Shown in pieces: positions 51,836 to 55,518 of a stretch of DNA of 64,000 nt. The stretch comes from Octopus vulgaris (Eukaryota). The notes below the pieces were generated by a model. It saw only the letters and a program-made list of their open reading frames with translations. It made no database searches and was not told where the DNA came from. Positions within the stretch are counted from its first letter, which is position 1, and each line of letters opens with the position of its first letter. The position numbers and the translations under genes were made by a program. Location: contig OX597833.1 of assembly GCA_951406725.2 (NCBI GenBank), forward strand, positions 51,088,001 to 51,152,000, in the 5' to 3' direction.

Positions 51836-52242
51836 ACTATATATACATTTATATACGCATTTACATATGCAGCTATATGCGCTGGTTTATATCTGTCTGT
51901 CTATCTATCTATCTATCTATCTATCTATCTATCTATCTATCTATCTATCTATCTATCTATCTATCTATCTATATATATATATATATATATATATATATAT
52001 ATATATATATATATATAATTAATCAATATAGGGTGGCAAAAAAATTTTGTAGAATTCTTTTGCCACCAGCGGCCTAGTGGGAAAAAATTAAATAGTCATA
52101 AACCATTTTTAAGTTCAACATCACAATCAAGGAACGGCCATAATAGGCCATTCACCCACTAGAAATAACAGCCAAAAGCTTTAACCGCAAAATAACGTCA
52201 ATTCCGTAAACCAGGAGAAAATTAAAAAACATTTACCCTGTA

Positions 52243-52348
52243 ATTTCTTAGACGATGCACCGTTTCATCTACTGTTTAATGGAAAACTAACCTGATTAAA
52301 TTAAATCAAGCCAATCTACCATAGGCCTTAGATTCATCAGTAAGAAAT
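52243..52348 (-). ncRNA. Type I hammerhead ribozyme, copy 1
   Basis: Minus strand reads atttctta-CTGATGA-atcta...tagat-GAAAC-ggtgcatc-GTC-taagaaat. Confidence 0.85.
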
Positions 52349-52876
52349 AGCCAGCCGAACAGATATTTTTCACGAGGCATTCTCGTTGCTACCTCGTCAA
52401 TATCTGACCTAAAATTTTCAAATCGTCGCACTCGCGCCAAATTTATCGGCAGCAAATAAATATAAGCCGCCGATTCCATTACGGAATTAACCAGAAAATT
52501 CATAATTAATCAATATAGGGTGGCAGAAAAATTTTGTAGAATTCTTTTGCCACCAGCGGCCTAGTGGGAAAAAATTAAATAGTCATAAACCATTTTTAAG
52601 TTCAACATCACAATCAAGGAACGGCCATAATAGGCCATTCACCCACTAGAAATAACAGCCAAAAGCTTTAACCGCAAAATAACGTCAATTCCGTTTTTGC
52701 CACCCTATATTGATTAATTATGAATTTTCTGGTTAATTCCGTAATGGAATCGGCGGCTTATATTTATTTGCTGCCGATAAATTTGGCGCGAGTGCGACGA
52801 TTTGAAAATTTTAGGTCAGATATTGAAGAGGTAGCAACGAGAATGCCTCGTGAAAAATATCTGTTCCGGCTTGGCT

Positions 52877-52983
52877 ATTTCTTACTGATGAATCTAAGGG
52901 CCTATGGTAGATTGGCTTGATTTAATTTAATCAGGTTAGTTTTCCATTAAACAGTAGATGAAACGGTGCATCGTCTAAGAAAT
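52877..52983 (+). ncRNA. Type I hammerhead ribozyme, copy 2; predicted cleavage after C52975
   Basis: 8-bp stem I atttctta/taagaaat, CUGAUGA at 52885-52891, 5-bp stem II atcta/tagat, GAAA at 52960, self-complementary stem III acggtgcatcgt, GUC triplet. Confidence 0.88.
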
Positions 52984-53366
52984 TACAGGGTAAATGTTTT
53001 TTAATTTTCTCCTGGTTTACGGAATTGACGTTATTTTGCGGTTAAAGCTTTTGGCTGTTATTTCTAGTGGGTGAATGGCCTATTATGGCCGTTCCTTGAT
53101 TGTGATGTTGAACTTAAAAATGGTTTATGACTATTTAATTTTTTCCCACTAGGCCGCTGGTGGCAAAAGAATTCTACAAAATTTTTTTGCCACCCTATAT
53201 TGATTAATTATGAATTTTCTGGTTAATTCCGTAATGGAATCGGCGGCTTATATTTATTTGCTGCCGATAAATTTGGCGCGAGTGCGACGATTTGAAAATT
53301 TTAGGTCAGATATTGACGAGGTAGCAACGAGAATGCCTCGTGAAAAATATCTGTTCCGGCTTGGCT

Positions 53367-53473
53367 ATTTCTTACTGATGAATCTAAGGGCCTATGGTAG
53401 ATTGGCTTGATTTAATTTAATCAGGTTAGTTTTCCATTAAACAGTAGATGAAACGGTGCATCGTCTAAGAAAT
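53367..53473 (+). ncRNA. Type I hammerhead ribozyme, copy 3; predicted cleavage after C53465
   Basis: Same sequence as copy 2, exactly 490 bp downstream. Confidence 0.88.
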
Positions 53474-55518
53474 TACAGGGTAAATGTTTTTTAATTTTCT
53501 CCTGGTTTACGGAATTGACGTTATTTTGCGGTTAAAGCTTTTGGCTGTTATTTCTAGTGGGTGAATGGCCTATTATGGCCGTTCCTTGATTGTGATATAT
53601 ATATATATATATATATATTTGTCTGTCTGTCTATCTGTCTGCCTATTTATCTATTTATGTACGTGTGCGTACGCGTTTGTTTGTGTTTATATTTACATAT
53701 CTATACAGTAGTTCACATACGTAAATTTCAAAGCAAACTGCAATTTGGTAACATGTATGTTTAGGTACGTACTTTAATCTGTGTTTCATACACCATTTCT
53801 TATACTTAAACGTCTGAAACGCAAACACATATGAAATCAATATATATTTGCGTCTGTACCTTTGAGATCGAATGTGCTTCTGTCCTTATAAACTGTGGGA
53901 CTGGAGACGCATTTTAATACTTAAAATTCTCCTGCTGTTTATATGAGGGAATATAGAATTTAAACTTCAAGTGGTAAATCTAAAACTTTCTTCTTTCCTA
54001 TCTACAATTTTACCCAACTTTCACCAGATTTAACCAACTAAAATTAAAATCGATCTCAACAAGTTTTAAAAGTATATTATGTAACTACTTCAAATAAAAC
54101 CAGGAATGTTGACTAAAATTGTTTTGTATTTTGCTACTCTGAATACGAACATATATACCGACTTACTATGAATCCTTTCAAAGGGAGCAACTAGTAACAC
54201 TTCCATACCTTTCGTAACAACAAAAAAAACCAACAATATTTTATTTTCAAAATTCATCCTGTTATCTTATATGGAAAAATATTAACCACATTCTTAAATG
54301 CAGTTTTCTATCCTTTACCAAATCTAACACTGGAAATAAAGGGGAAATTTTGAACACTAGTATGTTAACATGCCCTATCTTTAACACTCATTCTTGTCGG
54401 TTTCATATTGTCAGTGTAGAGAATGGAAAACTGAAAACTGAAAGCTACAACGAACCGCTTCTCTATCACGTAGATATTCTACTAAAATATTGAAACAACT
54501 TCCATGGATACCAATAAGTGAATTCTATATCTACCAAATTTCTTTTACACAACACATGTTCATAATATACTATAGAAAACAAATTTTGGTTCTTACACAT
54601 CTGTTTACCTATATCGCATTTAAGTGCCAAATGTACAAAAGTCCACCTGCAACAGTGAATTTAAATTAGGTGTTTATCTTGATTTCACTAGCAGTTTCCA
54701 TACTCCAATGCTTAACATTCAACATTGTACTATACATTGTTCAATATTGTACTATACAACTATTTTATAGTTATAGTTTTATTATCTAGACTTGCACACA
54801 ATCTTCTACTCATGTCTTATTTGATAACTGTACTAAAATTTATTCTAACCTACATTTTATATTTATTATTGTCGCGTTAATTTTTAAGAACTTTTTTACT
54901 GTTCTCTAACATGTATAAACTGAAAAATTACCAGCATCAAATTTAATTGAATCGATGACTTCCTTTGCTGCAATAACTATTCTTCAGTCAATCTAAGAAT
55001 TTACACGCACATATCTTTTATACTCAACATATATTTAGATGCCCGTTTGACCAGCAACACGTCTTGTCTCTTGTAAGAATGTCTGAGAATGATTTCAGCT
55101 GTAAGAATTCAGTTATAGGCCGTAATACGTGTTGCGTGTTGTCCTATCACTAATGATCCATATCATATAATCACAGCTTAATAACAATTTTCCCCTTCTT
55201 TAAACTCTTTAATATTGTCTATATACAAAAATATTTTTAAGTCGATCTATTTTTTAAATCTACCTGTTACTTAGCTGTATTTTCCAAAGCATAGTTCCCC
55301 TGCCTTTCATCTGTACTCAGTCTAATATCAATTTACTTATTTTCATGTATACACAAATGAAAGTCTTTGTTTGCTTTTTGGATGGTCGAGGGGCTGTGTA
55401 CTGTAATTATTTTCTCCATTTTAGAACGGAAAAGTTCACTGGTACAGCTATTTGATCAGATAGGAACGGCTAAATCAGGTATATTCAATATTAAAGGACT
55501 TGTTTTGTTTTTTTTTTC

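Follow-up and report, generated by a model that had tools for sequence, protein, structure and literature searches.

Non-LTR (long terminal repeat) retrozymes of metazoans have been proposed to use a circular RNA as template and a Penelope-like element (PLE) as partner (PMC7229834). A PLE origin of vertebrate retrozymes has been supported in a preprint, in which the mechanism was left open (bioRxiv 10.64898/2026.07.22.740005). PLE insertions are described as containing an inverted truncated copy and a tail of 30-40 bp, often at one end only (PMC8557442, PMC3846280). The tail was traced in vitro to two internal start sites of the reverse transcriptase (RT), and both DNA strands were cut and extended (PMC11167929). 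Circular copying of more than unit length by PLEs was proposed in 2014. Herein, a hammerhead ribozyme block at 52016..53596 is analyzed within 64,000 nucleotides (nt) of Octopus vulgaris (assembly GCA_951406725.2, contig OX597833.1, positions 51,088,001 to 51,152,000, forward strand). This whole stretch is the window, in whose coordinates positions are given unless a locus is named. The block represents a single insertion belonging to a large, young, non-coding, high-copy hammerhead-bearing family. Its two-armed architecture with two fixed ends, missed by the initial annotation, is the main result.

The block is formed by two arms joined 5'-to-5' at 52694, with the minus arm on the left and the plus arm on the right. 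The unit was numbered from the 490-nt monomer at 52976..53465 (plus strand), which runs from cleavage site to cleavage site as unit positions 1-490 and is predicted to give a linear or circular RNA. The minus arm (52016..52694, minus strand) is 5'-truncated at unit 44, makes a single pass across the cleavage junction and reaches its outer 3' end at unit 236 (+/-1 owing to TA). This is the long end, which carries the tail. The plus arm (52694..53596, plus strand) overlaps the minus arm by 1 nt, begins at unit 209, passes twice across the cleavage junction and finishes at the short end, unit 131. The 105-nt tail between the two fixed ends (53107..53211, plus strand; unit 132-236) includes a hairpin at 53159-53194, from which 17 nt lead to the long end, and the tail region lies within a fold conserved across four subfamilies. 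A predicted multibranch domain (53038..53157, plus strand; unit 63-182), kept across subfamilies, contains the short-end site at 53106 (unit 131). The block lies within (TA)n, as initially described, and strandless remnants of this target flank it on the left (51971..52015) and on the right (53597..53618).

The same two ends recur at other loci. Mapping was performed for the 40 best-scoring loci, all 35 loci with the GUC motif on contig C1, 12 loci of the GUA form and 7 of the 474-nt form; for the GUA and 474-nt sets, loci were picked among the returned stretches that span them. Two arms were present at 31 of the 40 best-scoring loci and at 24 of the 35 on contig C1. The first three sets, which represent subfamilies A and B, contain 63 distinct loci with two arms, of which 55 have one short end (unit 120-137) and one long end (unit 225-246), mostly at 131 and 236; one end lies elsewhere in the remaining eight, and two alike ends occur in 0/63. 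For the loci with both ends at a fixed site, the one-of-each arrangement in 55/55 has p = 2.8e-17 under independent choice. One short and one long end were likewise found in 5/6 two-armed loci of subfamily C, the 474-nt form. (TA)n follows 55/58 short ends and 62/65 long ends (117/123 fixed ends overall), and inside such a target a target-site duplication cannot be read. The inner ends are scattered, with an overlap of 1-6 nt at 36/63 arm joins. This two-ended, two-armed pattern is the tail signature of PLEs, here of 105 nt. The two fixed ends, the inverted arms and the (TA)n target support the Penelope-type mobilization suggested by the initial annotation, and insertion of a retrozyme-type element by a PLE-type two-site mechanism is considered highly probable.

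The three intact type I hammerheads claimed for the window were found, with complete cores. In the 64-kb window, the pattern CTGATGA-N(40-70)-GAAAC was counted 3 times, where 0.12 occurrences would be expected, and 3 or more occurrences were seen in 0/100 shuffles. All three copies carry every core position of the type I hammerhead (CUGANGA, GAAA, NUH; stem I open). Cleavage is predicted after a C in each copy: after 52975 in hammerhead 1 (52877..52983, plus strand), after 53465 in hammerhead 2 (53367..53473, plus strand) and after 52251 in hammerhead 3 (52243..52348, minus strand). In hammerhead 1, the core is at 52885-52891, stem II at 52892-52896/52955-52959 and GAAA at 52960-52963 (plus strand). 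Stem I has 8 bp, stem II has 5 bp with a 58-nt insert, and stem III (A-U/C-G/G-C/G-U) is closed by a UGCA loop. With this palindromic loop, the dimeric hammerhead form reported in PMC4209133 would be possible. The two plus-strand copies are spaced exactly 490 bp apart, so that the spacing and the predicted cleavage positions 52975 and 53465 stand as first given. The near-identity claimed for all copies holds for this plus-strand pair (1 mismatch in 413 bases compared); the minus-strand copy is a little less clean and has three single-base deletions, one of them within the stem II insert, and one substitution over unit positions 44-490. Because hammerhead 3 is alone on the minus strand, it would release no monomer by itself.

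The 58-nt stem II extension (52897..52954, plus strand) combines an internal loop (7x7) with a long covarying hairpin (helix 3), in which 97.5% of cells are paired and 4/18 pairs are altered on both sides. When 50000-56000 was scanned with Rfam, a check the initial annotation had proposed, no hammerhead model matched at E values up to 5, presumably because of this long insert; similar families with an extended stem may therefore be under-counted. In 14 chosen representatives, 12 pairs of the hammerhead structure are altered on both sides compared with 5.4 in shuffles. A number as high as 12 was reached in 0/500 shuffles, and slid controls gave 2-5. Among 106 distinct strings, counted from the core, inner pairs of stems I, II and III swap identity between subfamilies with pairing kept, core changes concentrate on the tolerant positions N7 (found as all four bases) and H17, and the cleavage triplet is GUC or GUA. 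The search tolerated one core mismatch per half only, so the conservation of the core is partly built in. Conservation of the stems across genomic copies, which the ribozyme call presupposed along with that of the core, is borne out by the changes on both sides of the pairs. The ribozyme structure is kept under selection, and self-cleavage is predicted. In each subfamily, 4-5 bases located 5' of stem I are able to pair with the internal loop of stem II, and in the window a pseudoknot is predicted at 52873..52902 (plus strand) between 52873-52876 and 52899-52902. This candidate of 4-5 bp gave -6.4 kcal/mol with its own partners and -5.2 +/- 0.4 kcal/mol with shuffled ones (1/1000), the haplotypes being related. 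Pseudoknots are known to stand in for the loop contacts that hammerheads usually have (PMC3088659), and a pseudoknot in the extended hammerhead is put forward as a lead only.

The whole genome assembly of 2.8 Gb in 227 contigs was searched for the family. Exact hammerhead-end motifs were found 956 times in the window's GUC form, 1,046 times in the GUA form and 246 times in the 474-nt form, with 0 in reversed controls, which sets a lower bound of at least 2,248 motifs. The 474-nt form is approximately 72-74% identical, and several subfamilies are present with identity down to about 72%. A tail motif common to these forms and to older relatives has 4,213 copies compared with 62 in the control, and the older subfamily D has 1,592 candidates. 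The units are arranged as short tandem repeats with one type I hammerhead per unit, and full units that are 97-100% identical occur on many contigs; for a single motif, contig C1 carries 35 loci. Within the 490-nt unit there is no reading frame of 100 aa; two upstream frames merely touch the first bases of the block. Another frame in front of the block (51464-51830) looks like the final part of a LINE reverse transcriptase; Pfam gave no match for it. The GC content is 36.5%, and the fold z-scores of -5.3 (sense) and -4.2 (antisense), from 25 shuffles, do not distinguish the strand. The young, non-coding, hammerhead-bearing, high-copy family envisaged at the outset is thus confirmed. The family was also detected in runs of unspecified kind labelled organisms B, C and D (30, 17 and 25 of 30 bins). 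An assembly artefact is ruled out by the dispersed loci, the fixed ends, the diverged subfamilies and the occurrence in other runs. Contigs from four runs guessed as RNA cover the unit with a head-to-tail join, which is uninformative on expression or circles because genomic tandems yield the same join.

Further variation was seen among relatives. Older ones (L063:2370-3100, L215-L244, L305-L324) have other hammerhead stems but share the UGCA loop, the tail motif and the long end. Subfamily D has an extra 20-nt hairpin, and its short ends are spread over about 131-159; an internal RNA polymerase III B-box suggested by this subfamily was not retained across its copies. At L148 (1-3064 and 3358-4509) and at L176, two separate family insertions with their own TA tracts lie a few hundred bases apart.

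The nature of the RNA template was addressed by comparing the arms. Arms of the same locus differ by 0.24%, compared with 2.1% between loci (46 loci; in 12 of them an arm from another locus was closer). This identity indicates that both arms come from one variant. Both arms traverse the cleavage junction in 42/55 loci, at least two times in 14, and arms extend up to 5.5 kb. The cleavage junctions are free of indels in 264/268 cases, and only 1/150 of the 5' ends falls at the cleavage site, which indicates that linear monomers released by cleavage do not usually serve as template. An apparent pile-up of 5' ends at this site (12/126 vs 3.6) was a tiling artefact; after exact mapping, 10/150 lie within 20 nt of it (p = 0.088). 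The indel-free junctions and the arms of one haplotype speak against end-to-end template jumping from one linear monomer to another. Rolling-circle reverse transcription of one monomer circle best fits the shared variant and the junction read-through.

The block is therefore interpreted, with a probability of about 0.6, as a non-autonomous retrozyme whose predicted circular 490-nt RNA was copied into (TA)n by a borrowed Penelope-type enzyme. A read-through transcript of an arm with two hammerheads would self-cleave into a monomer, which would be ligated into a circle. As PLE biochemistry suggests, an RT/GIY-YIG protein, probably a dimer, would cleave both (TA)n strands. Synthesis of complementary DNA (cDNA) on the same RNA would be primed by one strand at unit 131 and by its partner strand at unit 236, the two ends that are observed. 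Each polymerase would then travel round the circle and across the ribozyme junction, completing anything from part of a turn to about 11 turns as judged from the observed arrays, and would halt at a variable point. The two cDNAs would be joined 5'-to-5', often at the 1-6 nt of microhomology seen at the junctions. An arm with two hammerheads would become a new source element. In a fuller and more tentative form, slightly less likely to be right than wrong, the loci would be a genome-wide record of bidirectional rolling-circle retrotransposition by a Penelope-type dimer using two start sites on one ribozyme-made circle, with a pseudoknotted extended hammerhead and with the multibranch fold, not the sequence, recruiting the enzyme.

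A candidate for the borrowed enzyme was sought among the PLEs of this genome, whose load amounts to 6,136 GIY-YIG candidates, 150 of them scored. A young, intact Neptune-type PLE with two open reading frames (ORFs) is represented by L104:1244-6460 (G000:C6:133343243-133348459) and also by L101-L108, L119, L120 and L245-L274. In its 4.7-kb unit, a 479-aa upstream frame overlaps a 781-aa frame that combines GIY-YIG with an RT matched at E 1.1e-6, just under the curated cut-off. The 781-aa frame was present in 16/150 scored hits, the 3' regions are 98-100% alike, 1,233 candidates were counted, and a full tandem is located at C14. The frame bears the cysteine linker given for Neptune/Nematis by PMC8557442. 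The two ends of this PLE lie 35-39 nt apart in (TA)n, and one of each was found in 6/6 two-armed loci. Between the unit and the Neptune-type PLE loci, there was no detectable sequence similarity. The initial annotation had looked to copy number and to linkage with an RT/GIY-YIG ORF; copies number in the thousands, but in the loci tested PLE ORFs and units were never found joined, though PLE fragments lie near some copies. With neither shared sequence nor a joined unit, the Neptune-type PLE is a candidate only. It appears to be the best one, as judged only by shared target, end rule and age.

Hammerhead-like elements were also observed in PLEs. The 3' repeat of the young PLE contains such a motif (L104:6340-6400) with, as read by eye, a palindromic CATG loop and a poor stem I; core position 3 is U and core position 8 is A, a compensatory pair. 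A second Neptune-type family has a minimal PLE-type hammerhead with a palindromic GTAC loop and one core defect in each of two copies (L110:5795-5845, L115:6205-6260), and L110 has inverted arms with a tail at one end. A very abundant C-rich PLE-like family (L275-L304; 18,360 candidates) includes hits whose open frames reach 1,214 aa. The long end of the retrozyme (53195-53211) and, in the young PLE, the tail end (L108:6560-6580) both lie 17 nt past a hairpin and start with CTA, a resemblance that may be due to chance.

Several observations weigh against a ribozyme-made circle copied by a borrowed enzyme, and some of them favor a different template. The covariation is based on few, mutually related subfamilies, and the pair at the base of stem II is formed in only 3/12 copies of subfamily C and 0/29 of subfamily D. 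The active fold of the window copy lies 3.3 kcal/mol (local) or 3.7 kcal/mol (circle) above the lowest-energy fold, which sequesters the core. Of nine predicted Xenopus retrozyme dimers, eight failed to cleave (bioRxiv 10.64898/2026.07.22.740005). In published work, an anole PLE used uncleaved RNA in vitro, where hammerhead mutants were without effect on insertion. The mosaic or periodic arrays L032, L034, L057 and L125 are unlike the pure product of a monomer circle, and at L230, an old locus of subfamily D, both ends are of the short type. These folds, arrays and anole data are compatible with the same PLE two-site priming on an uncleaved linear multimer from a source array, with the ribozyme weak or serving another step; precise junctions and read-through are equally expected from such a template. 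If the template were a linear multimer from an ordinary array, however, its unit differences should appear in order in both arms, which is not expected of a monomer circle. In the 55 two-armed loci (80,526 bases, homopolymers excluded), 135 single-unit variants were found; 12 variants recur inside one arm and 3 are common to the two arms (3/150 by any unit of the other arm), and 0/82 unit-private variants are shared with the unit of the same rank in the opposite arm. This test loses power where source arrays are very young or most variants postdate insertion. The strand-order test gave nested inversions in no locus (40, 35, 12 and 7 loci), and linear copying would make arrays shrink every generation unless source arrays were very young. 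Priming on a linear multimer is accordingly judged unlikely.

Enlargement after insertion was also weighed, in which short insertions would expand like satellite DNA, through unequal crossover, with fold-back self-priming as the origin of the inverted arm. Both ideas are in print. The four-unit repeat of L032 has its breakpoint inside a unit, neighbouring units of L034 and of L058 have variants in common, and the two 5' truncation points lie 25 nt or less apart in 14/63 loci against 7.9 expected (p = 0.018), a hint of fold-back that also counts against the circle model. Yet many near-identical young loci are already multi-unit on both arms, variants shared between arms are as scarce as stated above, and fold-back alone leaves unexplained why the second arm always finishes at the other fixed site. 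This origin is improbable, though such growth probably contributes further units to some of the long arrays and does not create the pattern. L032, L034, L057, L058 and L125 reflect later duplication, conversion or mixed templates. At L032:2268-7784, an 11-unit array has a four-unit variant period with a nested two-unit period, for which later duplication, a multimeric circle or assembly are candidates. The unit might instead be the detached pseudo-LTR (pLTR) of an unsampled autonomous PLE, perhaps already in a repeat library. The order of hammerhead, short end and tail end is that of PLE pLTRs, 24/57 Xenopus retrozyme families match known elements, nearly all of them PLE termini (bioRxiv 10.64898/2026.07.22.740005), and the scored GIY-YIG hits are 150 of 6,136. 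The unit, separate inserted copies aside, is nevertheless unlike 50 GIY-YIG stretches and 30 loci of the very abundant C-rich PLE-like family, which also weighs against the borrowed-enzyme reading; no junction of unit and PLE ORF was seen in the loci tested, and the hammerhead is full-sized rather than of the minimal PLE type. A detached pLTR is the least probable of these explanations.

How animal retrozymes reach new loci is an open question in the 2026 preprint (bioRxiv 10.64898/2026.07.22.740005). If true, the bidirectional rolling-circle model would be the missing mechanism for animal retrozymes, and a single model would cover the partial tandems, inversions and tails of PLEs. The predictions are precise (two start sites, one template, multi-turn cDNA and a TA target). 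With a young, intact candidate enzyme in the same genome, they are directly open to the in vitro assay already published for PLEs. The significance is that an open mechanistic question becomes testable, rather than that a new class is revealed. The initial annotation knew of no description of the family. No account of this family was found in the literature, with Dfam, Repbase, the supplement of PMC7229834 and the preprint tables, which may list it, lying outside this coverage. The retrozyme class and the idea of a PLE partner, by contrast, are already published.

Compared with the metazoan non-LTR retrozymes, as described in PMC7229834, the family is alike in its non-coding tandems, type I hammerhead, low GC, thousands of copies and self-paired monomer. 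The invertebrate units are approximately 170-400 nt, whereas the unit here is 490 nt and differs further in the 58-nt stem II extension, the predicted pseudoknot, the head-to-head arms and the two fixed ends. The word "inverted" has 0 occurrences in the main text of PMC7229834, and in the retrozyme passages compared there is no description of tails or inverted arms, which are a feature of the family here. Cleavage and circles were demonstrated for those retrozymes, while both are predicted from sequence here. Vertebrate non-LTR retrozymes are similar in co-occurring with PLEs and in a range of 51-972 bp that includes this unit (bioRxiv 10.64898/2026.07.22.740005). The evidence for them is distribution and pLTR similarity, whereas here it is an insertion-site signature in the absence of pLTR similarity; their arrays are discussed in that preprint as local amplification by unequal crossover, whereas those here appear to be made at insertion.

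Endonuclease-containing (EN+) PLEs such as Neptune, Poseidon and Naiad share partial tandems, an inverted 5'-truncated copy, a one-end tail, an AT-rich or (TA)n target and a hammerhead upstream of the ends (PMC11167929, PMC8557442, PMC3846280, PMC4209133). Unlike them, the family has no ORF, a tail of 105 nt instead of 30-40, a full-size hammerhead and multi-unit arrays on both arms. The non-autonomous Chlamys elements such as MRC1 are likewise PLE dependants with multicopy head-to-tail insertions; these are green algal, reportedly without canonical hammerheads, and share 3' sequence with their partners (PMC8557442), whereas the present family has the hammerhead and no detected similarity to a partner. 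By its sequence features, the family belongs with the non-LTR retrozymes of PMC7229834 and is not an autonomous PLE. The retrozyme class and its PLE link had been proposed before; no account of this family or of its two-end insertion evidence emerged from the literature searched.

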